Shown here piece by piece: positions 9,401-63,295 of a stretch of DNA of 64,000 nucleotides. The notes under the pieces are model-generated. The model ran no database searches and was not told where the DNA came from. It was given only the letters and a program-made list of their open reading frames with translations. Both the position numbers and the translations under genes were made by a program. Location of the stretch: assembly GCF_902652985.1 (NCBI RefSeq), contig NC_047019.1:14254097-14318096 (forward strand), read 5' to 3'. How positions within the stretch are numbered: position 1 is the first letter of the stretch; every line of letters starts with the position of its first letter. This DNA is from Pecten maximus (lineage: Eukaryota).

Positions 9401-12030
9401 TAAAAAAATTGTGAAGTTATCAAACTCGAGTGCTTCAATAAACAGTGTTCCCCTACTGGTATGTACTGAAGATTAATGCAGACCTAGGTATCCTATAATC
9501 CCACAATGTTAGGAGTTTCATCACAGCAAGATACCTTTGACAGGTAATATTCAGGCAGTATACTGTATTCAACATAATAAGTGCATTATGTGCGTACAAA
9601 AAACACAAAAGGGTTGCACTTTAACAAAACCATATACAGGGAAAAGTTTCCATGAGAAATATGACAGAAAAAACCCACTTCTTTTTCATTTACATATCTT
9701 TAAGGAGACAGAATATTAGGTTAAAGACTTAAGATTAAAGTAGCATATCAGTAAGTTAAGGAACTTTTCTATGTTCCAATAATAACGCACTCATCCTCTT
9801 TTCCTGAAAAAGGGTGGGGTATGCTTATAGGAGCAGATGTACCAACTAGGTTAAATACGGACTACCAATAGCAGATTGGGTGATAAAGATTCCCTCCCCT
9901 AATAGAGCTAGCTGTAGTGTTATTTAATGCTTCCAATCTTTGTTCAAATCTTCAGAAAGCACCAATAAAAACTTGAGGATCAGAAATAAAATGCTAAGAT
10001 TGGGACAGTCACGTAACAATTGAATTTCTTTAGTCATAGTTCAATCCCCATAATACCTTTTTGTCTCTGCGGTTCAATAATGGTGGCAGAACAGAGTTGT
10101 TGAAGTCAAACTGAGCGAGAACCATTCGGGCTGAGCGTTCTCCTAGCATCACCATAGCAGTCAGCAGCCTGAGGGTTACTTTGATGTGGCCGGACTTGTT
10201 GGTCATTAGCAGGGTGAAGTATATGGTGGCCATTTGAGAAGATAACAATCTTTGAACAATGTTCTGGCCCACCACAGAAAACTTCTCCATATCATCTGCA
10301 ATCCTGAGCAATATGGCCTCCAGGACTCCAAAGACAAGTGCCAACTGGTCCAAAGAGATACATTTAAATAACAGACTTTTGTTATGCATGTATTTCCTTA
10401 CAGCAACAATGGTTAATTTATTTATTTTCTTCATAGACAATTCTTTTTATCAGCCACAATATAATCATATATGTGTGATATGTTTATTTAATGAGATGTT
10501 TTTCTGATATTTGAAGAAACTTAGTGAACCTTGTTTGAACTACATGTATAGCTATTATAATGACTTAGTTACTCAAGAAAGCATAGAAAAAGTATAGATA
10601 CAAAAAGGTTAACATCCCAAATTCACCCAAACAAACAAAAATAAACTTTTTGTATACTACATGTATTATTATTATTACAGACTTGGGCGGAAATTACCTC
10701 CCCTGGTTTCCGTTTCCCTGCTTCAAGAACTTTGAACACCTCGCTGCATTCTGCTGATGATCGGCAGTATCCGGCAACAATATCATATCCATGCTCTTCA
10801 GGCCACTTTCTTGCACTCTCAGAAAATTTTTCAAAAGCTGAAAAAAAAAAACAAAAAAACATGAACACTAAATTCTTATACCTATACCAGTAACCTAGGT
10901 CTATATGAATTGAAAAGTGGACCTTTGGACAAGACATATAAACATGGAAATGAACATATTACATTTATCAAACGATCTTTTAAATGTCCAAGAAGAGCTT
11001 TTCCATTGCATAAATATATTTTACATTCCAGAGAGGCATCAAAAATATTTTGATAAATAACATACATATAGATTTGAAATTGCAAAAGGTATTCACTTTC
11101 AATTTATTGCATTATCAGTAGCAGGTGAGTGATGCTACCTCAAAGGCATGCACCTTACAAGGGCTACAGGATTTTGATTCTACTGTTTCAAAGTTTTCTC
11201 TACGAAATTCTGTAATGACATATATATATAGTGTAGTACGTATACCTTACACATGTATGTGCCATCTTAGCCAGAGTTTCCTCTGGACCTGACAACATGT
11301 CTGGTGTAGGCCTGACATATGCATGGTGTCAGGGCCAGAGGAAACTCGGGCTAGTGCCATCTGTGGGGGTGAATTCAACAGAGATGAAGATATATAATGC
11401 AACAGAAATCAATGTCGAACCGTAACGTCTCTGCCAGAGCATTTTGAAATCATTATTCTATGGTAATCCAAAAGTTTGTGATGTTTTATTGGTCTTTTAA
11501 AAAAATTATACGAGCAGAAATATTTCGTATATATAGGTATTTCTGACTATTTTTTGTAATATAAAACTAGACATGCCACTGTGATCTGACGTGGCTGACT
11601 TGCAGTACTGTTGTTTAATGTTACGAATGTTATTGTATTATTACTGATGCTGTCAGAGTTACAGTGCTTAACTAGCCTAATCAGGCATATATAACTGATT
11701 ACCAGCAGGCGTCGAAATTCTGATCGCATCAGGCCTTCGATCGGAATCTTGAAGCCCGAGATTTCAGTTGCCTTTTCTAATATTATATATTACAAGCATA
11801 ACGTTTGAACCTGAAAAGGTTGTTGATGGGTCCCTCAGAAGGTATTTGAACGTAATTTCTGTGAATTCTTCTGTCTTGCATTTCTTATTTGGTGAATCAG
11901 TGTTCTGTTTTTCTGCGTCAACTTTCTTCTTTTTCCTTTTTAACGGTAAATTCTTATCCTCCGTCATGTTTATCGAAACACATGTGCTCGTGTTGTTTAA
12001 ACCGGAAGTTCTCGCCTGTTTACCATTCAC
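1..12030 (-). CDS. URB1: URB1/NPA1-like gene (nucleolar pre-ribosomal-associated protein 1). This is the 5' portion (N-terminal roughly 900 aa), multi-exon, and the gene continues beyond the window start
   Basis: Minus-strand exon translations: MTEDKNLPLKRKKKKVDAEKQNTDSPNKKCKTEEFTEITFKYLLRDP (NLS-rich N-terminus); YDIVAGYCRSSAECSEVFKVLEAGKRKPGE; LALVFGVLEAILLRIADDMEKFSVVGQNIVQRL...LLTAMVMLGERSARMVLAQFDFNN; DVRTCLLHFMMSFLITGSDDVIKQLLEQ; VGNIQMVLSTLLNK; VVQNPAVTKTLKVRLFTEFNMRALGQLYHWTG; HKFGINFYDKALGTSGQ; LIIKTLRACPDQLCHFLPSMLNTLSPRPSPKW; IKNPYPYVDKVSDFVSEAITMETT. The order and motifs match my recollection of the URB1 N-terminal region (for example FEAILLRTASD, LSFLIAGDDSTIVQVLEV, ISFYDASLGTFG, NILKVCPDLL, LVANPYSYTDKASDFVQEA). 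Exons are colinear with GT/AG introns. Confidence 0.55.
1166..1439 (-). CDS. URB1: URB1-like exon (…EEKIEVIKLLAHVFTTFIKNPYPYVDKVSDFVSEAITMETTGGSNLDNISIGTHDSIIDG)
   Basis: Acceptor tctatcag| and donor GATG|gtaaat on the minus strand. Lies within minus ORF 1119..1439. Matches the URB1 ANPYSYTDKASDFVQEA region. Confidence 0.5.
2104..2211 (-). CDS. URB1: URB1-like exon (SRWSLPDAHITGDNDGGQFPLPDSTDYHYTGPYLP)
   Basis: Acceptor tattgtag| and donor CCCAG|gtaaag on the minus strand. The frame was chosen by phase continuity and differs from the listed 1987..2190 ORF frame. Confidence 0.3.
2677..3069 (-). CDS. URB1: URB1-like exon holding an acidic low-complexity region (…IKIQQTLCLYQDLVPSVLVDDPVIIYKLLAGVKK…SEKANTDNDQS…KLPWG)
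   Basis: Minus ORF 2600..3085. Acceptor ttttttgtag| and donor TGGG|gtaaag. Contains an internal run of imperfect 30-bp repeats at 2780-2880. Confidence 0.4.
3818..4000. repeat. Tandem repeat with a 40-bp unit, about 3.5 copies, in a URB1 intron
   Basis: ggtttacagatagcattttggttttcagtgtaaatttaaatttatctt is repeated. The + ORF 3818..4000 shows the same repeat (SVNLNLS). Confidence 0.8.
4076..4181 (-). CDS. URB1: URB1-like exon (AIPDIKSLLMCWEHATTLGSEAKTQEPEHEDTRLT)
   Basis: Minus ORF 4047..4271. Acceptor cattgcag| and donor CACAG|gtaaaa. Confidence 0.4.
4768..4923 (-). CDS. URB1: URB1-like exon (HRHIVPRDTVLDFINMMLKRGMTALACVTEDNLSHWYTDTERDDIKQDYREK)
   Basis: Minus ORF 4681..5115. Acceptor tgtttcag| and donor GAGAAG|gtcatc. 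The length of 156 nt gives 52 codons. Confidence 0.5.
4945..5190. repeat. Minisatellite with a unit of about 30 bp (tgaccctgaccttgatagtgatgtgtg), in a URB1 intron
   Basis: Direct repeats are visible. They give the SGSHTSLSRSGSHTSLS repeats at the end of minus ORF 4681..5115, which are not coding. Confidence 0.8.
5225..5362 (-). CDS. URB1: URB1-like exon (IFEKQSELPAAFKLRDRVNAHKFVDMLMVDTLPPQEMLYTVLQALK)
   Basis: Minus ORF 5210..5404. Acceptor ctttttcag| and donor CTCAAG|gtcagg. The length of 138 nt gives 46 codons. Confidence 0.5.
5517..5712 (-). CDS. URB1: URB1-like exon (NQNHILTSFLTSLTKVTETPQIQELIIKTLRACPDQLCHFLPSMLNTLSPRPSPKWRASMAFLCK)
   Basis: Minus ORF 5499..5807. Acceptor ctattcag| and donor TGCAAG|gttagg. 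Phase is consistent with the upstream exon (…GTSGQ|NQNH). Confidence 0.5.
6252..6382 (-). CDS. URB1: URB1-like exon (VDDATKTEEQKIVADSTHQLLVELCSSHKFGINFYDKALGTSG)
   Basis: Acceptor tttacag| and donor GGACA|gtaaga on the minus strand. Matches the URB1 HGISFYDASLGTFG region. Confidence 0.5.
7185..7322 (-). CDS. URB1: URB1-like exon (VVQNPAVTKTLKVRLFTEFNMRALGQLYHWTGPSTWQNRPADDNLE)
   Basis: Acceptor ctttcag| and donor CTTGAG|gtcagt on the minus strand. The length of 138 nt gives 46 codons. Confidence 0.5.
8313..8395 (-). CDS. URB1: URB1-like exon (FVGSLIPGLQADSVGNIQMVLSTLLNK)
   Basis: Acceptor ttaag| and donor CAACAAG|gtaaac on the minus strand. Confidence 0.45.
9015..9240 (+). mobile_element. 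tRNA-derived SINE, copy 1 of 4 (full length, with an A/C-rich tail), in a URB1 intron
   Basis: tRNA-Ser/Leu-like head GGTGGCCAAGTGATTAAGGTGTCCCGACAC…GGGTTGCGAGTTCAAAACC, then the conserved core GGTTTTTCTCTGGGTTCCCCGGCTTTCCTCCACCTCC and the tail aaccaaaacaaacaaacaaa. Near-identical copies lie at 46496-46628, 51752-51990 and 63038-63270. ORF 8931..9203 is a translation of this SINE. Confidence 0.75.
9261..9357 (-). CDS. URB1: URB1-like exon (DPKDVRTCLLHFMMSFLITGSDDVIKQLLEQR)
   Basis: Acceptor acgtttcag| and donor AAAGAG|gtcagt on the minus strand. Matches the URB1 DVRQAYVQFALSFLIAGDDSTIVQVLEV region. Confidence 0.5.
10057..10344 (-). CDS. URB1: URB1-like exon (LALVFGVLEAILLRIADDMEKFSVVGQNIVQRLLSSQMATIYFTLLMTNKSGHIKVTLRLLTAMVMLGERSARMVLAQFDFNNSVLPPLLNRRDKK)
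   Basis: Minus ORF 10030..10440. Acceptor ggaccag| and donor AAAAG|gtatta. The length of 288 nt gives 96 codons. Confidence 0.6.
10698..10837 (-). CDS. URB1: URB1-like exon 2 (FEKFSESARKWPEEHGYDIVAGYCRSSAECSEVFKVLEAGKRKPGE)
   Basis: Minus ORF 10623..10937. Acceptor (t)n-cag| and donor GGGGAG|gtaatt. Phase 1 in, consistent with exon 1. Confidence 0.55.
11230..11350. mobile_element. Hairpin-forming SINE-tail fragment, a MITE-like inverted repeat
   Basis: ccagagtttcctctggacctgacaacatgtctggtg faces cat(g)gtgtcagggccagaggaaactcgggct. It is related to the tail of the SINE-like element at 30195-30480. Confidence 0.5.
11811..11967 (-). CDS. URB1: URB1-like exon 1 (MTEDKNLPLKRKKKKVDAEKQNTDSPNKKCKTEEFTEITFKYLLRDPSTTFS). 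An alternative upstream ATG lies at 12030
   Basis: Minus ORF 11764..12030. Donor TTTTCAG|gttcaa. Basic NLS-like N-terminus. Confidence 0.5.
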
Positions 12031-12246: not shown

Positions 12247-15200
12247 GTATCCTTTAAAATATTGGTAAAAACATGCGGGTTATAGAATATAGAGATGGGT
12301 AATTATGTTGATACTGAAGTAGGTTTAGAGATTTTCTTGAAAATGTAAACATTGGAAGTCACGATTTCCTGATTCAATCAGACTCAAGGACTTCTCCTAT
12401 GAAACTTTGTTATATTCTATGATTGTATTGTCTATTTAATTTGTCTACTGAAGGACAAGTCATGATAATTATATAACATTCATTTTAAAGAAATGTTGTC
12501 AAAAAGACTACTGATGATGAAAATCAGCAACAGTTTGTAGTAAAAGTTGACAGAATTATGAAATGTAAAAGTTTAAAGTAATTAAGAAAAAAGATCTGTA
12601 TTTTGAAATTATTTATTGGTCCTGAGTTTGGTCAACTAAATATTTCCTCTCTATTTACCTTAATATGACTAAAGTGTTGTAGTGTTGCCTTGTAACTTTG
12701 CAATATATCAATATAATATGTGCATGTGGCAGGTTTTCATGGTGATATGGTCGCCTTCTAGCTTTGCGCTAGGGGGAATTTCCCTTTAGAGCGGCGGACC
12801 AGTAATCTGAAAGTTGATGGCCATGGTTTGATCCTCGTTGGAGGCACACTACTCTCTTTCCTGTTACAAATATATACATTGTATTTTATATGGTTTATAT
12901 ATAGACTTATATCCTATACAAAGATATTCTGATGGAAAATTCCCTGTGAATGCTGATGTTATGTATGTTATGTATTTTTGTAGTTTTCTTGAAATATTTA
13001 TTTAATAGATTATGTATTGCATGTTCTGTCTGGTATACCTTAACAGTATATAGAGCATCTCTTTAATCTCAAATTCGCTGCAAAGGACTTGGAGCGCAAT
13101 GCAAAACGAAGTGAAAAGTCAGAAAAAGAAGAAAAAACTAAATTAAAAAAGGTAACCAGTAGTTAAAATTGTTTATAGAATGCTGATAAAGGTCAGGTGA
13201 TGTAGACAATGTACTGGTAAGTACCGTAGATTTTTCCCATGTCAATATTTGAAGAAGAAAAAGGGCACTATACACAAATATTTATGGTAAGTATTATGGT
13301 TGTAACCATGTAACTATAAACATACACCTGTAGATCAGTATGGTAACACTATGGTCTATGGCCACCATATATAGATAAGTATGGTAACACCATATGACCA
13401 CCATGTAGATAAATATGGTAACACCATGGCCACCATGTAGATAAGTATGGTAACACCATGGTCATCATATTAGGTGGATATGGTAACACCACATGGTCGT
13501 CATATTAGGTAGATATGGTAACACCACATGGTCGTCATATTAGGTAGATATGGTAACACCACATGGTCGTCATATTAGGTAGATATGGTAACACCACATG
13601 GTCGTCATATTAGGTAGATATGGTAACACCATATATAGCCGCCATGTAGGTAAGTATGGTAACCATTAAATAAGTATGGTAACACCATGGTCTGCATGTA
13701 GATAAGTATGTATGGTTTTACCATGAACACCATGTAAGTAATGAAAATTTAGTTATCTAAAACATTTCAGTGTATACAGCGTAACGATAGTAAAAGAACT
13801 TACCTGTATCTGTATATACCTTTTTTAGGTCACCTGAGACAAAGTCTCAAGTGACCTATTCTAATTGCCTTTTGTCCGTCGTCGTGCGTCGTCCGTCGTG
13901 CGTCCGTAAACAATTTACATTTTCGACTTCTTCTCCAAAGCCCCTAAACCAAATTCAATGAAATTTGGCAGGAAGCTTTTATGGCTAAAGGTCAACCAAA
14001 ATTGTGAATTATATGGTCCCCACCCCCAAGGGGCCTGAGGGGCGGGGCTAAAAAGGGTCAAATTTACTAAAACTTCAAAAATCTTCTTCTCTACTCTCAG
14101 ATATGGTGGAATCAAACACTCTTCATAGATGGAAGGGTCTTAAGGTACTTTACCAAAATTGTGAATTTCATGACCCAGGGGTCTCACGTTTGCCCCTGGG
14201 GAGGGGGTAAACTTTACTATAGTTTATATAGGGAAATCACATTTTTGACTATAATTTGTTGGATTTCTATTGGAATTCATTCTAACTTGGTTAACATTAT
14301 CAGCATGGGAAAACAGATTGATGGTATACACATGTTGGCCTTGACTGACCCCCAGGGGCTGATGGGCGGGGCTAAAAAGGGTCAAATTTACTAAAACTTC
14401 AAAGATCTTCTTCTCTACTCTCAGATATGGTGGAATCAAACACTCTTCATAGATGGAAGAGTCTTAAGGTGCTTTACCAAAATTGTGAATTTCCTGACCC
14501 TGGGGTCTCACATTTGCCCCTGGGGAGGGGGTAAACTTTGCTATAGTTTATATAGGGAAATCACATATTTGACTATTGTTTGTTTGATTTCTATTGGAAT
14601 TCATTCTAACTTGGTTAACATTATCAGCTTGTGATTGCAGTTTGATGGTATACACATGTTGGCACTGACTGACCCCCAGGGGCTGATGGGTGGGGCTAAA
14701 AAGGGTCAAATTGACTAAAACTTCAAAAATCTTCTTTTCAAAACCCAATTAAGATAGAATCAAATACTCTTCATAGGTGGAAGGGTCTTATAGTGCTTTA
14801 CTAATGTTATGAATTTCATGACCCTGGGGTCACAAGTTTGCCCCTGGTGAGGGGGTAAACTTTACTATAGTTTATATAGGGAAATCACATTTTTGACAAT
14901 TATTTGTTTGATTTCTATTGGAATTCATTCTAACTTTGTTAACATTATCAGCATTGGATGACAGCTTAATGGTATATACCTGTTGGCCCTGACTGACCCC
15001 TAGGGACTGATGGGTGGGCTCAAAAGGGTCAATTAGATTAACTGAAATACTTCAAATCTCAGGTGACCGTTAAGGCCCATGGGCCTCTTGTTACACTTGA
15101 CATGCACTCCACTATACATACATTAGTGTATGTCTTCATGGAATGATCTGCATTGTAATCAAATCTATGTGATATATACATATACACTGTACATGAAATA

Positions 15201-18200
15201 AATATATATAGTACATCCAGTGGTAAACATGATTCAGATGTCGTATTTACGATGTACATTTGACTGGTCATTAGTCTATTGAAGGTGATATTTATATAGT
15301 GTAGCCGCTAAAACATTAATATTGTCTATCTATTTCTAACAAACTGTCCAAATATGAAGCTCTGTTTACACAATATATAACTTATATATGTTACAATATA
15401 CTATACATTTAACAACTATTTACACATGTATCACTTTTATATCAGTTACATTATACTGTGAAAGGAGCGAGTTGGTGTGGCTTGTATTTAGTGAGGTCTT
15501 TGTCACTCAACTGATGGAGCAGCTTCGATTGCTCTTGAGGTAGTCGTGGATTATTACACCAGAGATCCTGGTTCGATTCCTGTCAGGGCATTCAGCAGGA
15601 ATGTGTTTTCCCTGTTACCTCACTGACAATCCTATTAATTTCCCGACTATTTACCCTTTTTAAACAAGTTACATTATATACTTTACATATACCAACACAT
15701 ATAAAGAACAGTATAAGTGACAGGCCTTAACACAGTACAGGGCAACTCTTCAATTTGAAATATAGTGCTAGGTCACTACTGCGTTTTGCAAACAAATGTG
15801 ATAAGGAAGAAAGGACTGAAAAGAGAAAATTGAAAAAGGTGAGTTTATATTGTAACGTGTAGCTCGTTTCCTCACCTGGTGTTGTAATAAAATAATGGTC
15901 TGATATACTATACTCAGCTTTTGTAACCCATGTATTAAATATGCATACAGCATTCCTCAAAAAAATGTCATCCCTGACTTATGTTGATTGGAGATTCTTA
16001 CCCCAGTCTTCAGAATGTTTAACACACATTCATTAATGCAATACTAGTAGTACCAAAGACAGTTCACTGTGTCACTTTCACATCAGTTAGGTCAAGGTCA
16101 CTATTTGAAGTCATATTCCAAATCTGCGCAAACAACAGATAAGTTTCATTATAGATACTTTTCAGTATGGTGTGTCACCAACTCACCATGCAATTTGTAC
16201 TAATGATGCAATTTGTAATAAAAATTTAAGAGTTATTTTTTGTGTGTAAGTCTGCAGAAACTCAGGTCCAAGGTCAAGGTCATAATACAAACCTAGTGTG
16301 TAGCTGAATAACACCATGTGATATATTCAAAATAGCATTCCAGATGAAAATGTTTTATCACTTCTTATCAAACAGAAGCAAGCTCATCTGACTAGAATCC
16401 TATATTTTGTAGAACCAGATTCTGACCATTATGTATGCTTGTTACAGGCAATCCAGAAAGGTAATCTAGAGGGAGCCAGAATACATGCAGAAAACTCAAT
16501 CCGACAGAAGAACCAGGCCCTCAACTACAGACGCATGAGTGCAAGGATTGATGGTGTAGCAGCCCGGGTACAAACAGCTGTGACAATGAAACAGGTATGC
16601 ACATTACGTACCTGTTATATAATGTAGCATTTGTATCTTAGGTAATAAATGGAGGAGATCAAGTAGATTTGTTCAATATCAGAAATTTTGTTTAATAGTA
16701 AATGAATTTTCTGACACTTTTAAATAAATTGAAGGAATCTTATACCAGTTCAAAAATAATTATTTAATGTATGAATTGTTGTTTTTAGCCCACCATCATC
16801 AGATGGTGGGCTATTCAAATCGCCCTGCGTCCGTGGTCCGTCGTCCGTCCGTCCCTCCGTCCGTCCGTAAACAATTCTTGTTATCGCTAATCCTCAGAAA
16901 GTATTGCATTTTGAGACCAATCGGAAAACAACATGGCCGACAGGCAGCCATCTTGGATTTTGACAATTGAAGTTTGTTATCGCTATTTCTGAGAAAGTAC
17001 TGAAGAGATCTTTCTTAAATTTCATATGTAGGTTCCCCTTGGTGCCTAGTTATGCATATTGCGTTTTGAGACCAATTGGAAAACAACATGGCCGACAGGC
17101 AGCCATCTTGGATTTTGACAATTGAAGTTTGTTATCGCTTTTTCTGAGAATGTGCTTAAGGGATCTTTCTCAAATATAATATGAAGGTTCCCCTTGGTGC
17201 CTAGTTATGCATATTGCGTTTTGAGAATAATCGGATAACAACATGGCCGACAGGCAGCCATCTTGGATTTTGACAATTGAAGTTTGTTATCGCTATTTCT
17301 GAGAAAGTACTAAAGGGATCTTTCTCAAATTTCATATGTAGGTTCCCCTTGGTGCCTAGTTATGCATATTGCGATTTGAGACCAATTGGAAAACAACATG
17401 GCCGACAGGCAGCCATCTTGGGTTTTGACAATTGAAGTTTGTTATCGCTATTTCTGAGAATGTACTGAAGGGATCTTTCTCAAATTTCATATGTAGGTTC
17501 CCCTTGGTGCTTAGTTATGCATATTGCGATTTGAGACCAATCAGAAAACAACATGGCCGACAGGCAGCCATCTTGGATTTTGACAATTGAAGTTTGTTAT
17601 CTCTATTTCTGAGAAAGTACTGAATGGATCTTTCTGAAATTTCATATGTACGTTTCCCTTGGTGCCTTGTTATGCATATTGCATTTTGAGACCAATCAGA
17701 AAACAACATGGCCGACAGGCAGCCATCTTGGATTTTGACAATTGAAGTTTGTTATCACTATTTCTGAGAAAGTACTGAATGGATCTTTCTGAAATTTCAT
17801 ATGTAAGTTTCCCTCGGTGCCTAGTTATGCATATTGCGTTTTGAGACCAATCTGAGAACAACATGGCCAACAGGCAGCCATCTTGGATTTTGACAATTGG
17901 AAGTTTGTTATCGCTATTTCTGAGAAAGTACTGAAGGGATCTTTCTCAAATTTCATATGGAGGTTCCCCTTGGTGCCTCTTTATGCTTATTGCATTTTGA
18001 GATCAATTGGAAAACAATATGGCCGACAGACCGCCATCTTGGATTTTGACAATTGAAGTTTGTTATCTCTATTTCTCAAAGTACTGAATGGATCTTGCTC
18101 CATAGTAGGTTCCCCCTGGTCCCTTGTATTGCATTTTTGGACCAGTCTGTCCTGAAAACAACCTGGCAAACAAACAGCCATTATCGTTAAATCTCAAATT

Positions 18201-20333
18201 TCTTATATAGCTAGGATTCCCTTGTTTGAAAAGTACTGGAGGGATGTCTCAATTTGCACAGATTAGTAAAATGAAGGGAAAAGTAGAGAAAAAATCAATC
18301 TGACATGGAACTTATGAAGATCATTCAATGGTGGGCGCCAAGATCCCTCTGGGATCTCTTGTTTTTCTGTTTAAATATGAAATCTAAGCGTTGTTCATCA
18401 TTTTAGGTTGCATTAAATCATTAAATTGAAGTCTATTAACATTACAAGCCTGTAATACAGATGTTTTGGGTTTATAGGTCACTGGATCCATGGCCGGTGT
18501 GGTGAAGTCTATGGAATCAGCAATGAAGAGTATGAATCTTGAGAAGGTAGGTTTATTTTTGTTCAAATGAAATTTTACAAGAATATTGTTGGCACTTGTA
18601 AAAAAAATTATAGATATACTTAACACTAAATATTTTCGCTACAGTCCATCCAGGATAGACGTCATGATCTCTGATTGGTCAATATTTAGACATTGAATTT
18701 TATGAAAATTTTTATGCATTTATATGGTGTATTTTGGGACTGTAAATAGTTGATTGGATGAGAAAGCAAATTCCTAGATATGTATCTGGCTATAAGCCCA
18801 TGTCTGCCTATAACAAACTACCAAATTTGATTAATGTTTATTGCATTTCAGTTAAAAAGCTTGTAGAAAATCAATGACATTTCATTGTCGAGCAATAAGC
18901 CCATTCTCTACCTCGAGTCCAAATTGATTTGTTAGTCACCTGGGCCTATCGCAGGATGACGTACAGTATTACGTTACAATTCAGTAGTGATGGGAATGAC
19001 ACCAGCTCAATGTGTGATGGTTCTAGTGTATTACCTGAAGTTATTTTGTCTTTAAAATGAAAATAAGATGTAGACATTACTTCTTTACAGATCTCACAGT
19101 TGATGGACAGGTTCGAACAACAGTTTGAGAATCTAGATGTGCAATCACAGGTGATGGAAGACACCATGAATGCATCGTCCACCCTTAACACACCTCAGAC
19201 GCAAGTGGAAGGACTGATGCAGGAGGTTGCTGACGAGGCTGGGTATGTACATCATCTTAGACTTGTTATATTTCCTAAAATAAACGGTAATCATGACGTT
19301 AAACATTTCTGTTAGGTTACTGGTCTACCTTTTATTTTGAGTTTTGATTGCATTATATATCAGTTCAGATGTGAAGTTGAGAGAAAGTCAAAAGACCGGT
19401 TAAACATACAGATTTAAGTGTGATTTTAACAAAGAATTAATATACATTTGTATTGAGCCATACATATTTAACATTAAAGACCATAGCTGTTGAAAGGTCA
19501 TTAAACAATACTATGCCAAACCTTAGGGCTATTCCAGCAAAATGCATACAGGTACCCTACGTGAGGACTCGAGAAAAAAACAAATTCTATACATGGTGGG
19601 TGTTGAAGAAAAGTGTGAGACAGTGGGAAGCAATCTTTAAATCTTGTTCTCATTAAATAAAATATGTGATTTGTGTTACAGTTTGGAATTAAACATGGAC
19701 CTTCCGTCAGCACAGTCATCCTTACCCTCTGGAGTAGCGTCATCAAATGCAAGTAGTGAGCAGGTAAGCTTGTGTGTAAATGGGCAGCATTATTACTGGA
19801 CAAGAACAGAAATTGTGGAGAAGAACTTGTATATATTTTGTTAAAATTTGCCTCTCATCCATTTTTCTGTTTTGACAATAAATTTCTTTAGATCAAATAA
19901 ACAAGTGGGTGTGTAAGAAATGGGGAAGTATCTATCATCTATTACTAGTTTTTAAAAGATTGGTCAGTTCTTGTTCTTATCATCTGTCTATTTTCTAAAT
20001 ATTGATTTATAAAATAACCTGGTTTAAAAAATACATTTTGGGGGCAAGAAACTTTGTTTGTGTTATTTTGGGGGATAGTTTATATCACTGATGCATTATT
20101 GAAAAATTGGTTTAGCAAATTTTCTTCATGAAAGTCTGATATAACATGTACTATTTCATAGCTTTTAAGTTTTTGTATCAGTATTTCTACCATACAATAC
20201 CACAACACAAAGAACTTTGCAGAAAAAATTCCTATTTCAATTTATTTGATGTAGTCTTTATCGATATAATAATAAATATGTTTCTTTTCTTTAGGATGAA
20301 CTTACACAGCGACTTGCAAAGTTACGGAATTGA
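12234..20333 (+). CDS. CHMP1: CHMP1 (charged multivesicular body protein 1, ESCRT-III). Complete gene with 7 coding exons plus a duplicated alternative exon 2
   Basis: Spliced translation MSMDKHLFNLKFAAKDLERNAKRSEKSEKEEKTKLKK|AIQKGNLEGARIHAENSIRQKNQALNYRRMSARIDGVAARVQTAVTMKQ|VTGSMAGVVKSMESAMKSMNLEK|ISQLMDRFEQQFENLDVQSQVMEDTMNASSTLNTPQTQVEGLMQEVADEAG|LELNMDLPSAQSSLPSGVASSNASSEQ|DELTQRLAKLRN*. This aligns along the CHMP1A/B proteins as I recall them. All junctions are GT/AG with consistent phases. Confidence 0.85.
13054..13151 (+). CDS. CHMP1: CHMP1 exon 2a (KHLFNLKFAAKDLERNAKRSEKSEKEEKTKLKK)
   Basis: Acceptor tatatag| and donor AAAAAG|gtaacc. It is 98 nt. Confidence 0.75.
13330..13700. repeat. 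Minisatellite with a unit of about 40 bp (atatggtaacaccacatggtcgtcatattaggtag), about 9 copies, in CHMP1 intron 2
   Basis: Direct tandem repeats are visible. Confidence 0.85.
13790..15060 (+). repeat. Satellite-carrying element. A 5' leader (hairpin ggtcacctgagacaaagtctcaagtgacc, then tattctaat, a (GTCC/CGTC)n microsatellite, then gtaaacaat) is followed by about 3.5 tandem copies of a roughly 316-bp unit
   Basis: Unit period measured between the gggcggggctaaaaagggtcaaatttactaaaacttcaa landmarks at 14049 and 14364. The same leader and unit family recur at 63296-64000. Minus ORFs 13915.., 14224.. and 14548.. are repeat translations. Confidence 0.8.
15480..15625 (+). mobile_element. tRNA-like SINE fragment of a different family (…GGTTCGATTCCTGTCAGGGCATTCAGCAGG…)
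   Basis: tRNA T-arm-like GGTTCGATTCC motif. It lies just upstream of CHMP1 exon 2b. Confidence 0.4.
15741..15838 (+). CDS. CHMP1: CHMP1 duplicated alternative exon 2b (QLFNLKYSARSLLRFANKCDKEERTEKRKLKK). Same length (98 nt) and phases as exon 2a
   Basis: Acceptor gtacag| and donor AAAAAG|gtgagt. It is a paralogue of exon 2a (LFNLKF/Y…KCDKEE…KLKK). Including both would shift the frame, which implies a mutually exclusive pair. Confidence 0.5.
16448..16594 (+). CDS. CHMP1: CHMP1 exon 3 (AIQKGNLEGARIHAENSIRQKNQALNYRRMSARIDGVAARVQTAVTMKQ)
   Basis: Acceptor ttgttacag| and donor AAACAG|gtatgc. It is 147 nt. Lies within ORF 16439..16627. Confidence 0.85.
16780..18360 (+). repeat. Satellite-carrying element of the pearl/Helentron-associated type. 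Leader (palindrome gcccaccatcatcagatggtgggc, then tattcaaatcgcc, then (CCGT)n, then gtaaacaat) followed by about 9 tandem copies of a roughly 155-bp unit, then a 3' tail
   Basis: Period measured between recurring acatggccgacaggcagccatcttggattttgacaattgaag at 16931, 17086 and 17241. A related leader plus a partial unit lies at 58950-60060. Minus ORFs 17515.., 17670.. and 17987.. are repeat translations. Confidence 0.8.
18478..18546 (+). CDS. CHMP1: CHMP1 exon 4 (VTGSMAGVVKSMESAMKSMNLEK)
   Basis: Acceptor tttatag| and donor GAGAAG|gtaggt. It is 69 nt. Confidence 0.85.
19091..19242 (+). CDS. CHMP1: CHMP1 exon 5 (ISQLMDRFEQQFENLDVQSQVMEDTMNASSTLNTPQTQVEGLMQEVADEAG)
   Basis: Acceptor ctttacag| and donor GCTGG|gtatgt. 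Lies within ORF 19100..19315. Confidence 0.85.
19682..19763 (+). CDS. CHMP1: CHMP1 exon 6 (LELNMDLPSAQSSLPSGVASSNASSEQ)
   Basis: Acceptor tgttacag| and donor GAGCAG|gtaagc. Lies within ORF 19644..19844. Confidence 0.8.
20295..20333 (+). CDS. CHMP1: CHMP1 terminal exon (DELTQRLAKLRN*)
   Basis: Acceptor ttctttag| and stop TGA at 20331-20333. Matches the CHMP1 C-terminal MIM motif (…DELSQRLARLR…). Confidence 0.8.
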   Translation, partial: DELTQRLAKLRN

Positions 20334-25546: not shown

Positions 25547-28500
25547 GTATGTAATCTTAAAAGCATGTGATCATGGCAGAGTACAGGTACCGAAGTACCA
25601 AAATTTGTAAACCGTGCATTTATAATACTTAATCTAATGTACCTGATAATTTCTAAATACTTAAAATCATACTGAATCTTATGCCCTGCCCGACTAGTTA
25701 ACAGAATATCTGTTTGTAAGGTGTGTGCCCATGCATATATATTTATCATCTTTTTAAGAATTTTTAATTTTAGAAAATTGGAATTCTAACTTCACACATA
25801 TCTGCTTCATATTTAGACATACATATGTAATTTTATTGAATAGATTGATGCTTGTTTATGGCATATATACTGTCTTTTAATAAAACCATTTGACATAAAA
25901 CATATCTTAATCTGAGCAAGTAAATGTCTCCAGTTTAAAATTGTTTTTGTATATTAAACACTTCCAACAAACAGAATTGTATTATTTTTTTTTTGCAATA
26001 ATTGAATATTTAGTTATTGAGAAATTTGATAAAAGCCTTAATAAAGTGGTATAGATGAATTAAGGGTTAGTAATACAATATGATAAATCAACGTTCCCAT
26101 TACAACTTAAAGATCATGATAGACATTTTAAAAATAAAACCGCATTTGTTTTCCCAGAGTACTCATGTCATATGTAACGACCCTGCTAAAGCAGACATCA
26201 GCTACAAGTGTAAGATGGCACAGAAGTATGGCATCCCTGTTGTGTCAGTCAGCTTCCTGTATGACTGCGTTGAGAAAGGGAGACTACTCAGTACTGACGA
26301 TTACCTGGTTGTTGGCAAAACAAGGTCTCAGAAACTTGGCTCTGGTAGAATTGCAGGTAAAGAAATATATCACAATCATTTATGATAATACATTGTTCCT
26401 TGAAACCTTGCATATATAATTAGTCCCCTGCCGTTTGAAAAACGGGGGGACTATAGGTTTACCCTCCGTCCGTCCGTCTGTCTGGCCGTCTGTCTGTCTG
26501 TCTGTCACGCAATAGTTGTCCGGACAACTCCTTCTAAAGTACTACTCCGATTTTAACTAAACTTGGTATACATGATTAGTATAACATGTAGTTGTGCATC
26601 CCACAATTTTTTTTTCTTCGAAAAACCGATTTTCAAAATGGCCGCCGGCTTCTCATTGGTTGAGGCTTGTCCGGACAACTCCTCCTAAAACTACTCCGAT
26701 TTTAACACAACTTGGTATGCATGATCAGTATAACATGTAGTTAAAGCAATGGGAAATAAATAGGTGCACTCCTAGGTCAGGCAGGGGACTTTGTATTGCT
26801 GTTGCAATACTATCCATCCTTGTTATATATATATATGAAGTGATAGGATGCTTATTGAACAGACTACTTTGAGATAATTCTGGATACAGTATTTCATTTT
26901 TATTCTTCGTGTAAGTTATGTAGTATGTTTGGCTGTATCTGAAAACTGTAATTAACAAGCAACTTCATTTCTTGAAACATCTTGCATATTTCTTAGGTTA
27001 TTTAAAAAGCAAATCTCTTTAAAATTAAGCTAAGGATTTGAGAAATTGCAGGAGCATGGGGAATATTTGATATATTTTCCTCTTATTATACACCTTTCAG
27101 ACAGTAGCAAGTACAAGGTACCAATTCTGGTTGAATTTATTTCACAGAGATCATGAAAAAAATGATAAATTGATTGTTTTTCAAATATCAGATCTGCGGT
27201 AAATATGCAATAAGTGACCCTGGGATGAATATATTCATTGTTTCAGCTACAAAGTACCAGATCCTTGGAAAGAGGAAGAAGTCCTCCTTCTATCCTGGAG
27301 GAGTGAAAGCATGGCCACTACAGGAAAAACATACCCCTATATTTAACAGTACCAAATACCAGGTGGCAAAATATGCAGTATTGAAGGTAAGGACACTGGG
27401 ATGTTTATTATAAGTCCCATTCTTCACAGCAGACTTTGTCACGATCTAGGGCATGCAAATATCACATACCTGAGCATGTACTGAAGAATCAATCTATAGA
27501 CCAATTAAGTACAAGCAGAATATTTCCAGTTGTCTTATTTAACAGGTTTTACATCCACTTGTCGGCCACATTCTCCTTTAATTTAAGGGTATAGAGGGCA
27601 TGTTTGCTAACTGTTTGAAATTTCCTTTTGCCTGGGCAGGGTTGGGATGGGAGTGGATGACATCAGAAAAGAACCTTTATAGACATCTTTCGGAATACAT
27701 AAATATTTCATATTTGTTACTGCTCTTTTTCCAGTATCAGTTGGATTGTTTAAGGATTAACTTGACGTGTTAAGGTGATTTAACACAAAAAGCAGTGTGC
27801 TGTTAATAAACAGCAAAGTGATTGATGATGAGAATACAATCCAGCTTGTTATTATTACTCAAAGTAAAATAAAAAACTATATACATGTTAATCCTTATAT
27901 TAATTTGATTATACACAATCCCTATGGAAATCCACTTTTATTGATGGACTCTTATAAATTATGCCACTGTATAATAGGCCAGTATAAAGCGACTTTACAA
28001 ATATCTTGGACTGATAACATAAATTCTAAGCCAATGAAAATGCATGTTGTATACAAAATCAGATTCTAAGCCAATGAAATTTAATGCTTGTTGTACAAAA
28101 TTATAAGAAACAGATTAAAATTTTTACAGATAGCCTGTATTTAATTAAGTTTGGTCCAAGAATCATGAGTCTAACTCTGAAACATGATGGGTTATGCAAG
28201 TATTATTCTAAAGAGGATTTTCACCAAAATATTGACAGTTGCCACAAATTTAACTACATCTGAACTCATATTACACATGAAAATATGACACTTTTTGTTG
28301 AAGTAATTTTTGTAGATGAAAAATTTCTTCAGTTCAATCTTGGTTTTATTGTTTCAGAAATATGTGAAGAGTGCCGGAAGAACGTTTTTCTGTGTGCTGG
28401 AGGTTCATGTCACTGAGGAACGTGACCTTCTGCCTGGACAAATCTACAGATTCAGGGTGTCGAAGCACCATGGCAACCTTAAAAACATCCAGGTATATGA

Positions 28501-31500
28501 AAATATACAGGAACATCAATAATAATACTATGTTAATGAGAGCTGAAAATAAGTAGATAAAATATGTTAGGTTCAAAACTTGACAGTGTACAAAATATAA
28601 TTAAATTTTCTCTATTTTTCTTATATGGACAAGTCAATATTTTGTGGTGTACATGGCATTTATTTCAAAGTTGATAAATTACGTAAAGAAAACTTTTTTT
28701 TAGTTTATTCTAATAAGAGAAAATTATGTTTAAATAGGATGATAAAGGGTTATAGAACTATTTAACTTGCTCCACAGGAAGGAAAACCTGAGAAAATGGA
28801 ATGTTACTATGTTGAGACTTCGGAGGAAGCTACCAAGATGTACAGTTTTCTATACAAACAGCAGACAGACCCCCCAAATCTAATGGAGGTGTCCCATGAT
28901 GCACCTCCGAGGGGTGTGGGCACCTTGAATTTTCAAAAGGTTAGTAGATCTCTGAATTCAACAAATAATGTCAATATATTTATACAGCAAAATGAAGATT
29001 TTAACAAAATGACAGTTTTTAACTTACAATGGGAAGGTCCTGAAGTTATCAGTCAACTTAAAGATTTTCAAATCTCGGCGAACAAGAGTTATTAGATATA
29101 AATTGATATAACTTGTTTCTCAATTGTTGTAAATAAAGTTTATACAGATTTTCATTAAGGACGGTTTTTAAATGTTGATTTCATGGAAGCTAAATATGAT
29201 GTGCAATATGTTAAAGAGCTGTAATAAGAATCGTTATAATACTTCTTGATTTAACAGATGATGGTCACATTTGGACTAGAGAAAGCAGAGTTGTCCACCC
29301 CTGTCTGTGAACTAGTAGAGGGGATATGGAAGGAAGCTTACTCTGATCTGTCTGACATCCTAACCTCACCGAGCTCAGTCAAACTAGAACAGGTCCGTTA
29401 ACTACCACCACTGATACAAATAAATAAAATGATTTATCTGACATCCTAACCTCACCGAGCTCAGTCAAACTAGAACAGGTCAGTTAACTGACACCATCAC
29501 TTATAATACAAATAAATAAAATGATTTATTAAGATTTATTTATTTATTTATATTTCATTAATTAAATAATAGATTAAATTATAAATTAATTAATTAATCA
29601 TTTTATTTATTTATTTTGGGAAATGAATGTTTCTTCCTTTACTTTAATGTTATTTCACTGATGCTTCTGCTCCAGCAAATCCCAAAATTCCATTATGCTT
29701 TTCAATGTATCATTTCTGCCTCAGTTATTCTTCGCTGATCGATTCTTTAAGAAAAAAGGTTAGAAAACGGGAGATCAAAATTTAACTTAATAAATTAAAC
29801 AGGTTTGTACCAAACTAAGGTTAGAATACTACATCCCTGAAAGTGGCCTAGATTGATTAGGCCTTGTACATTGGACAATATTTTATGTCGAATGTTTTAG
29901 ATTGAGAAAGCTGAAGCATTGCTGATGAAGCTGAGAAGTCAACCAGAAGACAAAGAGTCTGTCCTTAGTGAGTTCTACTCCACTCTCCCACACAACACTA
30001 AGGTGTCTGTCAGCGGGGTGAACAATGCCTGGTTGTCTAGTGAGCAGGATATCTGTCAGGTAAGCACAGTCCGTCCGTATCATTTAAACATTGGCTATGA
30101 GATCACATGATATCTGTCAGGTAAGTACAGTTCATTTCATTTAAACATTGGCTATCTGATGTTAAGATAATGATATCTAACCTGTAATCTTCGATAGGTG
30201 GTTGGGTGGCACAGTGGTAACACACTTGCCCTTCACCTAAGCGGCTGAGGTTCGATTCCCTGTTCGGACGTGAAAAGGTATGGGGTCACCTAACCAACCA
30301 CGAGGGTTTTCCCTGGGTACTCCGGTTTCCTCCAACAGTAAGACCCCTCGTGCACTTCCATCCGGGCCAACAAGCGTGATTAATATAAGTTAATATAACT
30401 TGTTTCGCAATTGTTGTAAAATAAATAAAGTTTACAAACTTCGATGTAGCCCGAGATTCCTCTGGCCCTGACATCATGTCTGGTATCACATAATTATATA
30501 CTATATCACTACATCAAATTTTTCTTTTTTCGCTCCATTGTGCTATGATAGGGTGATTGGCGAAACCGTGACCTACATATATAGTTTGCAATATGGTGTC
30601 AAATCAAGTGTGAAATTTTGACCAGTGTAAAGCGAGGGTCTATACAGACAAAATAAAACATTGATACAGGACCATCTGGGTGTTTAGGGGTAGATAAATA
30701 TCTTATTTACCCATAAATGCAAGTTAGGTGTTATGTCATGCCAAATTTCATTTTATCTGCACCAAAATCTTACCAACACCAAACGATGTCAGAGAATTCC
30801 ACGTTTTCATATAGTAGTGAGCGCTGGCCTTACACCAGACATGGTATCAGGGCCAGAGGAAACTTGGGGCTTACTTTGATGTTAACTGACATTAACAATC
30901 AACATATTTTAGATTTTTTTTTTTTTTTTTCCAAACAGCATGAAATAGCAGGAAAGCAAACCCTGTGGATCTCTTGCTTTCGCGAAACAATAAACACGAA
31001 ATGTTGCATGTTCTATCAAAATACAGTGAAGCCAGCTCAAAGAAAAAATCATGGTTTGCTGATTAAAAATGAAAAAAAAATAATAACCATTTCCAGGACT
31101 TTTGATAAACCTTTGAGAAAATTTTGGCTCTCTAAAATTAATTTTGAAGTTTTGGTTTTAGTTGAATTTTTTTTCTATTTGACACATATTTTGAACTTTC
31201 TTTTGCTGGAAATTGTGGTTTGACTCCCATAATTGATGTAAGTCAATGAACAACTGAAGACCCCCGATTTAAGGTTGTATATCTAAATGTTTTTAAGGTG
31301 ATGAAGGACATGCTGACGGTCAGTGAAGCTACCGGCTGGTCACTTCGAGGGTCAACAGAGTCCAAGTACCGTGCCCTTAGGTGTCAGATAGAACATAGAG
31401 CCCCTGATCACCATGTGTACAAGACTGTCAAGGCCCTCGTTAACAAATCCCTGGATGGGTATATACTTTTTTCCTGATCATACAGTAGATGTAGAAATAG

Positions 31501-58699: not shown

Positions 58700-58949
58700 G
58701 TAAGTATTTGTTTCATATTTCAATCATACGTGTATAATGATGTAATATCAGCCCAATGTTAGTGTAAGGATCGAGACGATTTGTTTCAGTGATCCGTCTG
58801 TTAACTTTAATTTTCCTGCTGTTCCATCACAACATATCAAAACTGTCAGGTGACTAAGATGGCATCTGTATCAGTTTTAGACAAATGTAAGTTGTCTCCA
58901 GTATTGACATGTTGAGGCACGTACCAATAATTCTCTACAATTTTAGTCC

Positions 58950-60060
58950 ACCTTCATCAGATGGTGAGCTATTCAAATCGCCTTGCGTCCGTGGTCCAGT
59001 GTCCGTCCGTAAACAATCCTTCCTCTATCTTCATATGTAGGTTCTCTTTGGTCTCTAGTTGTACCATTTGAATTTAGATTTTTGATTAGAAAAAATAAAA
59101 TGGCCATCAGGCAGCCATCTTGGATTTTGAGAACTGAAGTTTGTTATCGCTATTTCTCGAAAAGTACTTGAGGGATATTCCTCAGACTTCATAATATGTA
59201 GGTTTCCCGTGGTCATAATACTCCCCGCAACGAAGTTAGGGGGGCGGTATACTGGAATCTGGTTGTCCGTCCGACCGTCCGTCTGTAGACACAACGATGT
59301 ACGGCTACTCCTCCTAAACTACTGAGGGCATATCAACGAAACTTTATGACAATAACCCTTATACATGGGTAGATGTGCATTATCTATATCATGTTGTAAT
59401 TTTGTGGTTACAATGGTAACCAGGTCACTATACTTTGTTTTTTGGGTGAGGGAGAATTTTGTCCAGCCTCTTAAACCTGTGAACTGCTTCAAGTCAAATA
59501 CACAAGAGTGATAGGGACCATGTGTAAATGTGCATGCATGTTATTTCTCTACAGAATTTTTGGTTTCTATGGCTGGTTTCAATACCCATATTCTTGTGGA
59601 AAACTTTGTCAAGACAACTCGGACAACTCCTATATAGCTATCAACCAATTTCATTTGAAATACACAGGAATGTTAGGGACTCATAATGTGTACATATGCA
59701 TGCAGGTTTTTTCCCAACAAATTTAGGTTGCCATGGTAACCCGTTCACTAAAAACAGGTTTTTGTTGGAAAATCTTCACCAGAAGGACGGTGGAGAGGCG
59801 GGGGGTATGATTTAGCCCTCTGGACGACAGTTCTAGTTAGTTGTGCGATTTGAATTGTGATTTTTTTTATCAGAAAAACAAAATGGCCGACAGGCAACCA
59901 TCTTGGATTTTGATAATTGAAGTTTGCTATCACTATTTCTTGAAACTTGTTCTTGTCATCTGATTAGTAAGAGGAACAAAAAAGGAAAAGTAGAGAAAAG
60001 ATCGGTCTGTCATAGAACGAATAAAGATCATTCAATGATTAGTAGTATTCAGATTGTTTC
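58950..60060 (+). repeat. Second copy of the pearl/Helentron-associated satellite carrier, with a degenerate tandem array. Leader tcatcagatggtgagctattcaaatcgccttgcgtccgtggtccagtgtccgtccgtaaacaatcc, then aaaatggccatcaggcagccatcttggattttgagaactgaagtttgttatcgctatttctcgaaaagtacttgagggat and a 3' tail
   Basis: Leader, repeat unit and tail (…aaaagtagagaaaagatcggtctgtcatagaacgaataaagatcattcaatg) are homologous to 16780-18360. Confidence 0.65.
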
Positions 60061-63270: not shown

Positions 63271-63295
63271 TTCAAAGTTAAGAATTTCAGCTTTT

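Follow-up and report, generated by a model that had tools for sequence, protein, structure and literature searches.

The hairpin-microsatellite loci of the Pecten maximus window, i.e. the whole 64,000-nucleotide (64-kb) stretch analysed, are most probably (probability about 0.88) non-autonomous Helentron-type transposons, or HINEs, of the kind described in bivalves as pearl, DTC84 and Cg_HINE. The sequence-only reading had taken them for pearl or Helentron-associated non-autonomous carriers of satellite-like arrays, an identification strengthened by their structural HINE features, by the excision of one element (C2) from its surroundings, and by copies with equal termini and array length. Structure and the published literature are the basis on which Helentrons, rather than another mobilising enzyme, are considered the likely source of mobility.

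Seven loci and one decayed locus, all on the plus strand (as are all coordinates given below), start with a run of T followed by a hairpin and (CCGT)n microsatellite. The hairpin is followed by (CCGT/GTCC/GTCT)n at 13827 (A1) and 63297 (A2) in family A, at 16787 (B1) and 58945 (B2) in family B, and at 26422 (C1), 52498 (C2) and 59218 (C3) in the C types. The proposal of hairpin plus (CCGT/GTCC)n leaders at several loci thus holds, as evident from their enrichment over chance and from a scan of both strands for hairpin plus microsatellite, which recovers the listed loci only. In the window, CCGTCCGTCCGT with up to 2 mismatches gives 22 matches against 0.28 expected, and CCGTAAACAAT with up to 1 mismatch gives 7 against 1.09, the three exact ones being A1, B1 and B2.

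From 5' to 3', an element consists of a T-run, an A-initial 5' subTIR with an adjacent IR forming the hairpin, a (CCGT)n-type microsatellite, a core-repeat array, a 3' subTIR, a palindrome and CT(T/A)GTT. The 5' subTIR begins immediately after a run of T2-T6, the IR that pairs with it lies 3-12 nt downstream, and in all seven elements the left flank is closed on its inner side by a microsatellite. In every complete copy the 3' arm of the hairpin recurs near the end as the 3' subTIR, with a short palindrome and CT(T/A)GTT after it, and these matching 3' ends indicate that the loci are bounded elements. The 3' terminal hairpin that had been suggested as a check is present as the palindrome of A1, B1, C1 and C2, together with a 3' subTIR and CT(T/A)GTT that had gone unmentioned.

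The subTIR pairs measure 13 nt with one mismatch in A1, 11/11 in C1, 11 nt with one mismatch in C3 and 10 nt with one mismatch in B1, lengths attained by 0, 2, 2 and 7 of 300 shuffles, respectively. DNA folding of the 5' hairpins gave z values of −5.2 for both A1 and A2, −7.8 for B1, −4.9 for C1 and −3.5 for C2, while those of B2 and C3 are decayed. The corresponding values of the 3' palindromes are −1.2 (A1), −2.5 (B1), −5.7 (C1) and −3.6 (C2); the palindrome of C3 and the 3' subTIR of C2 are decayed. The longest ORFs within the elements reach at most 77 aa and have no Pfam match, which indicates the absence of coding capacity, and no Rep or helicase was found in the 64-kb window.

Family A is best represented by A1 (13821-15092), a complete element of 1266 bp counted from its first A and preceded by T6. 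Its 5' subTIR AGGTCACCTGAGAC (13827-13840) is complementary to 15057-15068 at 12/12 positions and pairs with the IR GTCTCAAGTGACCT (13844-13857) into a hairpin of −10.6 kcal/mol, a stability reached in none of 200 shuffles. The (GTCC/CGTC)n microsatellite, followed by AAACAAT, spans 13874-13914. The cargo is an array of 3.1 copies of a 324-bp unit (14022-15032; TRF score 1599), preceded at 13915-14021 by a partial unit or related spacer (z 6.5 against the 324-bp unit). The 3' subTIR TCTCAGGTGACC (15057-15068) and the palindrome AGGCCCATGGGCCT with terminal CTTGTT (15073-15092) complete the element. The second copy, A2 (63292-64000), is ended by the window edge; it is 91% identical to A1 in register, and its microsatellite is decayed. 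Unit 1 of A2 is 93.0% identical to unit 1 of A1 and only 86.6% identical to unit 2 of A2. A dimeric origin of the 324-bp unit from monomers of ~160 bp was considered and rejected (z 1.75).

Family B is represented by B1 (16782-18363), a complete element of 1577 bp plus T5, residing in what we take to be an intron of a CHMP1B-like gene, with the exon read from the ORF at 16439-16597. Its 5' subTIR AGCCCACCATC and IR GATGGTGGGCT form a perfect 11-bp hairpin (16787-16812; −13.3 kcal/mol), followed by the (CCGT)n microsatellite and AAACAAT (16828-16875). The cargo comprises 7.7 copies of a 155-bp unit with 92% matches (16902-18100; TRF score 2004), the first of which shows a 59-bp deletion, and the 3' end is formed by the 3' subTIR ATGGTGGGCG, the palindrome AGATCCCTCTGGGATCT and terminal CTTGTT (18328-18363). 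An ORF of the 155-bp unit found no match in the protein database. The other window copy, B2 (58941-60037), has a leader ~91% identical to that of B1, but its 155-bp units are degenerate, C3 interrupts it, and its sequence breaks off where the 3' subTIR begins. For family B a single intact 3' end is available. As to the repeat units proposed earlier, the one of 155 bp is retained; that of 316 bp gives way to a period of 324 bp in A1, a length of 315 bp being found only in unit 1 of A2.

Among the C elements, C1 (26422-26824) is a complete HINE of 403 bp with subTIRs AGTCCCCTGCC and GGCAGGGGACT, a (CCGT/CTGT)n microsatellite at 26462-26505, and a 3' end made up of the palindrome GTATTGCTGTTGCAATAC and CTTGTT. 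C2 (52498-52809) is a 312-bp HINE inserted within a 52-bp tandem array, with a 5' hairpin of ATACCCCC and GGGGGTAT and the terminus CTAGTT. C3 (59218-59838), of the same family as C2, is a 621-bp HINE nested in B2, with subTIRs ATACTCCCCGC and GCGGGGGGTAT and again CTAGTT. The core repeats of the C elements are of roughly 140-180 bp and have diverged beyond TRF detection; C1 holds ~1.7 of them. The 12-mer TTGTCCGGACAA marks the microsatellite-side edge of the core repeats, beginning each repeat of C1 (26516, 26667) and recurring in C2 (52571); its form in C3 is decayed, and it is present in neither A nor B.

The three C elements had been listed as MITEs sharing the leader motifs TATTC(A/T)AAT and GTAAACAAT. 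They do possess the leader architecture; the two motifs, however, are confined to the A and B types (degenerate in A2), and in their place the C elements carry TATAGG or TATACTGG, plus GTAGACAC. A decayed C1-like leader (~35988-36075) containing GTCCGTCCCGTCCC is followed by three copies of a 47-bp unit (36098-36237, detected by TRF). This leader aligns locally to that of C1 with z 7.2 (0/500 shuffles), and no 3' end was recognised for the element (35988-36237).

According to the published rule, an identical subTIR of at least 11 bp defines one family (PMC4067079), and A, B, C1 and C2/C3 are accordingly assigned to four families and not to the single leader family supposed earlier. Alignment of the leaders upheld a relationship between A and B in the linker (z 4.0) and the post-microsatellite stretch (z 5.5), to which the tail may be added (z 3.9). 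For the hairpin arms no relationship was upheld (z 1.1). The two families thus have linker and tail motifs in common, and with C they share the architecture alone. In shuffle tests of the cargo, C1, C2 and C3 are related to one another only, and a distant likeness of the A, B and C cargos, suspected by eye, was rejected (forward-strand shuffle z at most ~2). Related flanks with unrelated cargo in A and B, and unrelated flanks with related cargo in C1 and C2/C3, suggest that flanks and cargo recombine as modules.

Mobility of the elements has been assessed from copies in the window and from independent copies in NSIT01, a king-scallop gill metagenome. Counted over these two sources, dispersed copies with constant termini occur at four loci for family A, at three for family B and at two for C2/C3. 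The NSIT01 copies match the window elements in their termini and differ from them in their flanks: L003 carries the 5' end of family A and L005 the 5' end of family B, each in another flank, and L004 is a complete family A copy with other flanks, 1266 bp long, 91.1% identical to A1 and closing with the same tail. The unit boundaries of L004 (223/547/871) are those of A1. Identical length and boundaries indicate that the array moves with the element, and since length and unit phase agree in two independent insertions, the array was copied within the element and not grown in place.

Insertion sites have been examined by excising the two C elements that interrupt repeats. With C2 removed, the 52-bp array unit is exactly continuous again (76/80 identical; junction ATTAATT^CACATT), and without C3 the 155-bp units of B2 are back in register. 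The occupied site of C2 is bordered by TT on each side, against a single TT in the empty unit, so that an insertion into TT without duplication and a 2-bp TT duplication both fit; insertion was precise at TT, no host bases were lost, and the duplication amounts to TT at most. No duplication is seen around C3. The A and B copies are always T-flanked, the 5' run being T5-T6 throughout family A (four copies) and T4-T5 throughout family B (three copies) whatever the flank, which indicates that the 5' T-run acts as part of the element.

These sites bear on the possibility that the loci are MITEs which a DDE DNA transposon moves by cut-and-paste, duplicating a TT (AA) target, as pearl and DTC84 were first described. 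The inverted repeats near both ends are in line with it, the TT on each side of C2 would formally allow a duplication of 2 bp, and an AA target-site duplication was proposed for DTC84 when it was first read as a MITE (PMC3879986). Such an origin is nevertheless improbable. The repeats are subterminal and asymmetric, lying 0-6 nt from the 5' end and 23-35 nt from the 3' end instead of at both extreme ends, an additional hairpin partner is found at the 5' end only, and a separate palindrome at the 3' end only. The 5' T-run acting as part of the element and the lack of TT on the 5' side of C3 also speak against it, and the literature has since moved this architecture to Helentrons (PMC4067079, among others).

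The 3' palindrome near the end, the lack of a clear target duplication and the capture and carriage of foreign sequence are also features of canonical non-autonomous Helitrons, and Repbase labels the oyster equivalents Helitron-N. With the TT counted as part of the 5' end, C2 and C3 can be read as terminating in CTAG (a CTRR end) and as inserted between A and T. Canonical Helitrons are, however, a still less probable identity, as the 5' TC is absent, the 5' ends being a T-run followed by AG or AT; the termini of A, B and C1 are CTTG(TT) and not CTRR; and a consistent A^T target is lacking, the flanks of family A not being A...T. The subTIRs, the 5' IR hairpin and the (GTCY)n microsatellite are features of Helentrons and DINE-1 that canonical Helitrons do not possess (PMC4067079).

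That the arrays are immobile, having grown in place with the leaders as local by-products or chance occurrences, deserves hardly any credence. Some homogenisation within arrays is indeed visible, neighbouring units u1 and u2 being 98.1% identical in L003 and 93.8% in A1. Identical 5' termini in unrelated flanks, at four loci for A and at three for B, speak against growth in place, which is contradicted outright by the precise excision of C2 and by the agreement of A1 and L004 in length and unit phase. Nor are the loci at all likely to be SINEs of tRNA origin or another sort of retroposon containing internal repeats: the neighbourhood does include tRNA-like SINE sequences, but ARAGORN found no tRNA-like structure in the window, the 3' tail is neither A-rich nor a simple repeat, no target duplication of variable length is seen, and the elements end in hairpins with inverted repeats.

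The HINEs account for part of the tandem repetition in the window. The arrays borne by them cover ~2.2-2.7 kb of ~8.8-9.3 kb of array sequence, about a quarter, and none of the 17 other arrays in the window has HINE termini, although one of them, the 47-bp array, adjoins the decayed C1-like leader. The idea that the elements explain the high density of arrays is therefore not sustained. Two further candidates were discarded. A hairpin with TTATTCAA that follows the 52-bp array (53108) matches the B leader weakly (score 20, z 3.7), below any window-wide cut-off, and a minus-strand hairpin/repeat triple at 51226/49812, in apparently exon-like sequence of a minus-strand gene, is taken as a chance match. 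The tRNA-like SINE sequences near the elements are located at 15460-15640, 30200-30440 and 63040-63260, and the window also includes a 543-aa RT ORF with 100% identity to a protein of P. maximus, in keeping with the species of origin.

Outside the king scallop, one 22-kb locus each of Argopecten irradians and Mizuhopecten yessoensis contained no homologue of A, B or C and no hairpin with microsatellite. Neither the B leader nor the C core turned up in the viral contigs scanned, and a search of bacterial and archaeal genomes for the C core and for the hairpin of family A likewise gave no match.

As no autonomous partner is present in the window, a rolling-circle mechanism is inferred from the Helentron/Helitron literature. 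A Rep/helicase-endonuclease encoded elsewhere in the genome would recognise the terminal hairpin and subTIR signals, nick the 5' end, peel off or copy one strand as far as the 3' palindrome, and paste it into a T-rich target. The array length would then drift by slippage, unequal exchange and deletion, of which the shortened first unit of B1, the 98% identical neighbours of L003 and the truncated B2 may serve as examples.

All eight leaders (A1, B1, C1, the decayed one at 36 kb, C2, B2, C3 and A2) point in the same direction, while the genes of the window lie on both strands. Unless it is due to chance or local selection, this shared orientation of independent insertions from four families could reflect strand-specific integration relative to replication-fork direction, an explanation that we regard as unlikely. 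Integration dependent on fork direction is known in bacterial single-strand HUH transposons (IS200/IS605) and is not known to occur in Helentrons of eukaryotes.

Carriage of satellites by Helentron-type elements is an established concept in oysters, clams and insects, and with these elements the king scallop joins the bivalves in which short arrays of satellite type can be shown to be carried as cargo in this way. The clean, bounded examples described here could seed annotation across the genome: they represent four families and include one element nested in another, a site whose empty state is precisely recovered, and a pair of full-length copies from independent insertions with equal array structure. 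Their practical use would be in repeat annotation and in the study of satellite seeding.

A close resemblance exists to Cg_HINE of the oyster, in which a 5' subTIR of 11-12 bp is complementary to an IR at a distance of 1-12 bp, the left flank ends with a GTCY/GTCC/GTCK microsatellite, central satellite-like repeats of ~150-180 bp follow, and a 3' subTIR precedes a palindrome within ~60 bp of the end; the target is T-rich or TT without a TSD, and its groups combine related flanks with unrelated repeats and the reverse (PMC7492417). Compared by published description, the scallop elements agree in subTIR and IR, microsatellite, core repeats, 3' end and the mixing of flanks and repeats; they differ in host and in the 324-bp unit of family A, about twice the usual monomer. 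DTC84 of Donax trunculus and pearl CvG of Crassostrea virginica are built of flank, core repeats, (ACGG)n and flank (Satovic and Plohl 2013, PMC3879986), i.e. the same modules in reverse complement of the orientation used here, in which the order is flank, microsatellite (ACGG = CCGT), core repeats (1-5 or more in this family) and flank. DTC84 also has an 11-bp inverted motif that is subterminal at one end, and each of its core repeats terminates in TTGTCCGGACAA beside (ACGG)n (PMC3879986). At the level of this 12-mer and the described layout, C1, C2 and, in decayed form, C3 have it at the equal position, in contrast to families A and B, which lack the palindrome. DINE-1/HINE elements of Drosophila, mites and mosquitoes, in which 3-22 bp separate the IR from the 5' subTIR, the target is TT and the number of boundary T residues varies (Thomas et al. 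2014, PMC4067079), resemble the scallop elements structurally in subTIRs, IR, microsatellite, central repeats, 3' stem-loop and TT target. They are set apart by the conserved DINE-1 core block, absent from the scallop elements, and in mites by a distance from the 3' subTIR to the end of 38-60 bp (PMC4067079), as compared to 23-35 nt in the scallop.

Seven HINE (non-autonomous Helentron) copies were delimited in the window by reading the loci and then locating their 5′ and 3′ repeats and termini. Family A includes the complete element A1 (13827-15092) and A2, which begins at 63297 and is cut by the window end; family B includes B1 (16787-18363) and B2 (58945 to ~60037), and the C types are the complete element C1 (26422-26824), C2 (52498-52809), lying within a 52-bp tandem array, and C3 (59218-59838), nested inside B2. 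All are on the + strand. So is an eighth leader (~35988-36075), C1-like but decayed, which precedes a 47-bp x3 array. The recurrent module of hairpin and microsatellite heading arrays, proposed by the sequence-only reading, is present in the seven elements and the one decayed leader, and a scan for a hairpin followed by a microsatellite on both strands of the window recovered just the seven element loci. CCGT-type microsatellites gave 22 matches in the window (0.28 expected), all on the + strand. Exact copies of the motif CCGTAAACAAT lie at 13904, 16865 and 59007; TATTC(A/T)AAT and GTAAACAAT, taken earlier as common leader motifs, are present in the A and B types and absent from the C types. 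By Tandem Repeats Finder, the array near 14 kb in A1 has a unit of 324 bp (3.1 copies, 14022-15032), where a 316-bp period had been claimed, and that of B1 has a unit of 155 bp (7.7 copies, 16902-18100).

Each complete element has a 3′ end matching its 5′ module, where only the 5′ modules had been noticed earlier; a 3′ repeat, a palindrome and CT(T/A)GTT were found in every one of them. Per family, the 5′ arm (subterminal inverted repeat, subTIR) pairs with a neighbouring inverted repeat (IR) and has a second complementary sequence close to the 3′ end of the element. The 5′ arm, adjacent IR and 3′ sequence are AGGTCACCTGAGAC, GTCTCAAGTGACCT and TCTCAGGTGACC in family A; AGCCCACCATC, GATGGTGGGCT and ATGGTGGGCG in family B; AGTCCCCTGCCG, CGGGGGGACT and GGCAGGGGACT in C1; and ATACTCCCCGC, GGGGGGCGGTAT and GCGGGGGGTAT in C3. 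On shuffling of the 3′ 80 nt, the 5′/3′ pair was equalled in 0/300 (A), 7/300 (B), 2/300 (C1) and 2/300 (C3) cases. The 5′ arm, IR and 3′ repeat co-vary between families, which argues for constraint. Compared with shuffles, the fold of the 5′ hairpin has z of −3.5 to −7.8 in A1, A2, B1, C1 and C2; the hairpins of B2 and C3 are decayed. The short palindrome downstream of the 3′ repeat (AGGCCCATGGGCCT, AGATCCCTCTGGGATCT, GTATTGCTGTTGCAATAC or GTCAGCC..GGCGAC) is followed by the CT(T/A)GTT terminus, and a T-run (T2 to T6) always precedes the first A at the 5′ end. No ORF within the elements exceeds 77 aa, and none contains a Pfam domain.

Removal of C2 joins the 40 nt 5′ of 52498 to the 40 nt 3′ of 52809 as a gapless 52-bp unit, identical at 76/80 positions, with the junction ...GATATTAATT^CACATTTG...; at this one empty site, insertion took place without loss of host bases and with a duplication of TT at most. 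Removal of C3 puts the 155-bp unit of B2 back in register. Independent copies were found through the 77-aa ORF of the 324-bp unit, which matches two "invertebrate metagenome" proteins; both lie on contigs of NSIT01, an assembly from king-scallop gill (Cano et al. 2018). L004, on such a contig, is a complete copy of family A with unrelated flanking sequence (...tcgatgg TTTTT AGGTCACC ... GGCCTCTTGTT taaag), and L003 is another family-A 5′ end in a third flank. A scan of metagenome contigs with the B leader identified L005 (NSIT01000206; ...gaatacc TTTTT AGCACACCATCATCAGATGGTGGGCTATTCAAATCG..., then a full 155-bp unit). In the window and NSIT01 taken together, an identical 5′ terminus is shared by four loci of family A and three of family B. 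Defined termini are thus present; their absence was what the earlier reading had named as evidence against itself. The start of a 37-nt match (92%) between window 11084-11120 and L005 253-289 coincides with the outer boundary of the B element in L005; it is possibly a common repeat into which the L005 copy, whose contig ends inside the element, inserted.

A1 and L004 are both 1266 bp long, with unit boundaries at offsets 223, 547 and 871 and 91.1% identity overall, and the first unit of A2 is closer to the first unit of A1 (93.0%) than to its own second unit (86.6%). This shared length and phase, together with the unit relationships, indicates that the array was already present in the source element and was copied as part of it. 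Later turnover is evident from the 98.1% identity of L003 units 1 and 2, and from a 59-bp deletion in the first unit of B1 that is not found in L005. In B2, the leader is joined at a different point of the 155-bp unit, and the 3′ subTIR and palindrome are lost.

Piecewise alignment of the leaders with 1000 shuffles showed relatedness between A and B for the post-hairpin linker (z 4.0), the post-microsatellite stretch (z 5.5) and the last 45 nt (z 3.9), but none for the hairpin arms (z 1.1). C2 and C3 form one family, and the C1 flanks have no significant similarity to C2/C3, A or B in this alignment. Since an identical subTIR of at least 11 bp defines a family (PMC4067079), four families are recognized, and not the single leader family proposed earlier. 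The cargos of A, B and C are unrelated to one another, while the core repeats of C1, C2 and C3 are related (z up to 16). Related flanks with unrelated cargo, and the converse, are both reported for oyster Cg_HINEs (PMC7492417), and the window holds both combinations, the former in A and B and the latter in C1 and C2/C3.

The proposal that such elements explain the very high density of arrays is not borne out, as inspection of the sequence bordering the 17 remaining tandem arrays in the window (periods 27-86 bp) revealed no HINE ends and the HINE-borne share of array bases is roughly a quarter. One of the 17, the 47-bp array at 36098-36237, is the one preceded by the decayed leader. The 17 also comprise the large, very homogeneous 54-bp (60469-61442, x18, 98%) and adjoining 39-bp (61512-62885, x35, 91%) arrays, which are without HINE termini, and the 63-bp arrays beside the DIRS-like retroelement described next; a scallop satellite of roughly 40 bp, PjHhaI, is reported in the literature. 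Arrays of one 57-63-bp unit (36473-37041, 37932-38514, 45464-45610) bracket a DIRS-like retroelement (38988-43045, +) with three consecutive ORFs, namely CCCH zinc finger, reverse transcriptase and tyrosine recombinase (phage-integrase); its reverse-transcriptase ORF (543 aa, 40437-42068) matches the NCBI entry "uncharacterized protein LOC117314606 [Pecten maximus]" at 100% identity. Successive inflated homopolymers (ggggggg, ttttttt, aaaaaaa) at 45240-45463 look like a technical artefact (unpolished long reads or gap filling) with no biological meaning. Between the 37-bp array blocks 55411-56012 and 56615-56852 lie 73-nt arms (56446-56518 and 56547-56619; 93% complementary, 28-nt spacing), the right one just entering the second block, which look like a foldback or MITE insertion.

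The shared orientation of the eight leaders (two-sided binomial p ~0.008) is the sole unexplained oddity, and could be due to chance or local selection. Genes occur on both strands of the window (G+C ~0.36): CHMP1B-like and PARP-like genes on +, and an Npa1-domain ORF (10030-10440) and exon-like sequence (49.8-51.2 kb) on −. The L003 copy has a splice donor upstream, on its own strand. The interval flagged earlier (13790-18360) lies in and around the + strand CHMP1B-like gene, whose exon at 16439-16597 reads AIQKGNLEGARIHAENSIRQKNQALNYRRMSARIDGVAARVQTAVTMKQ and which is probably CHMP1B. The exons at 29900-32300 and 45611 onward (+; e.g. ...FYSTLPH...) presumably come from a gene of the PARP family that includes a VIT/vWA-type part. 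Sequences resembling tRNA-derived SINE heads (GGTTCGATTCC-type box B) occur at 15460-15640, 30200-30440 and 63040-63260 (+), and ~50000-50080 (−), one of them directly upstream of A2; ARAGORN called no tRNA in the window, these stretches included.

Among known systems, classical MITEs, with truly terminal repeats and a fixed duplication, do not fit the scallop elements, nor do canonical Helitrons, with 5′ TC, 3′ CTRR and an A^T target. The 12-mer of the Donax trunculus element DTC84 is also found at 26516, 26667 and 52571, each time at the edge of a C-type core repeat that faces the microsatellite, with a decayed copy at 59606; this 12-mer points to a specific link of the C types with the pearl/DTC84 lineage. 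No Rep/helicase gene lies within the 64-kb window, and a Helentron protein would, by analogy with the literature, mobilise the elements by rolling circle. Bivalves and insects already provide well-described cases of the phenomenon; no scallop description of these elements was found in the literature searched. The core of the sequence-only reading, satellite carriers of pearl/Helentron type, is correct; it has the support of the element boundaries, the empty site at C2 and the independent copies in NSIT01. HINEs are defined by a 5′ subTIR, IR, GTCY/GTCC microsatellite and central satellite-like repeats, by a 3′ subTIR and palindrome, and by a TT or T-rich target without duplication (PMC7492417, PMC4067079). 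For the target, the empty site at C2 fits insertion at TT either without duplication or with a 2-bp TT duplication; in their structure, the scallop elements agree with the HINE anatomy feature by feature.
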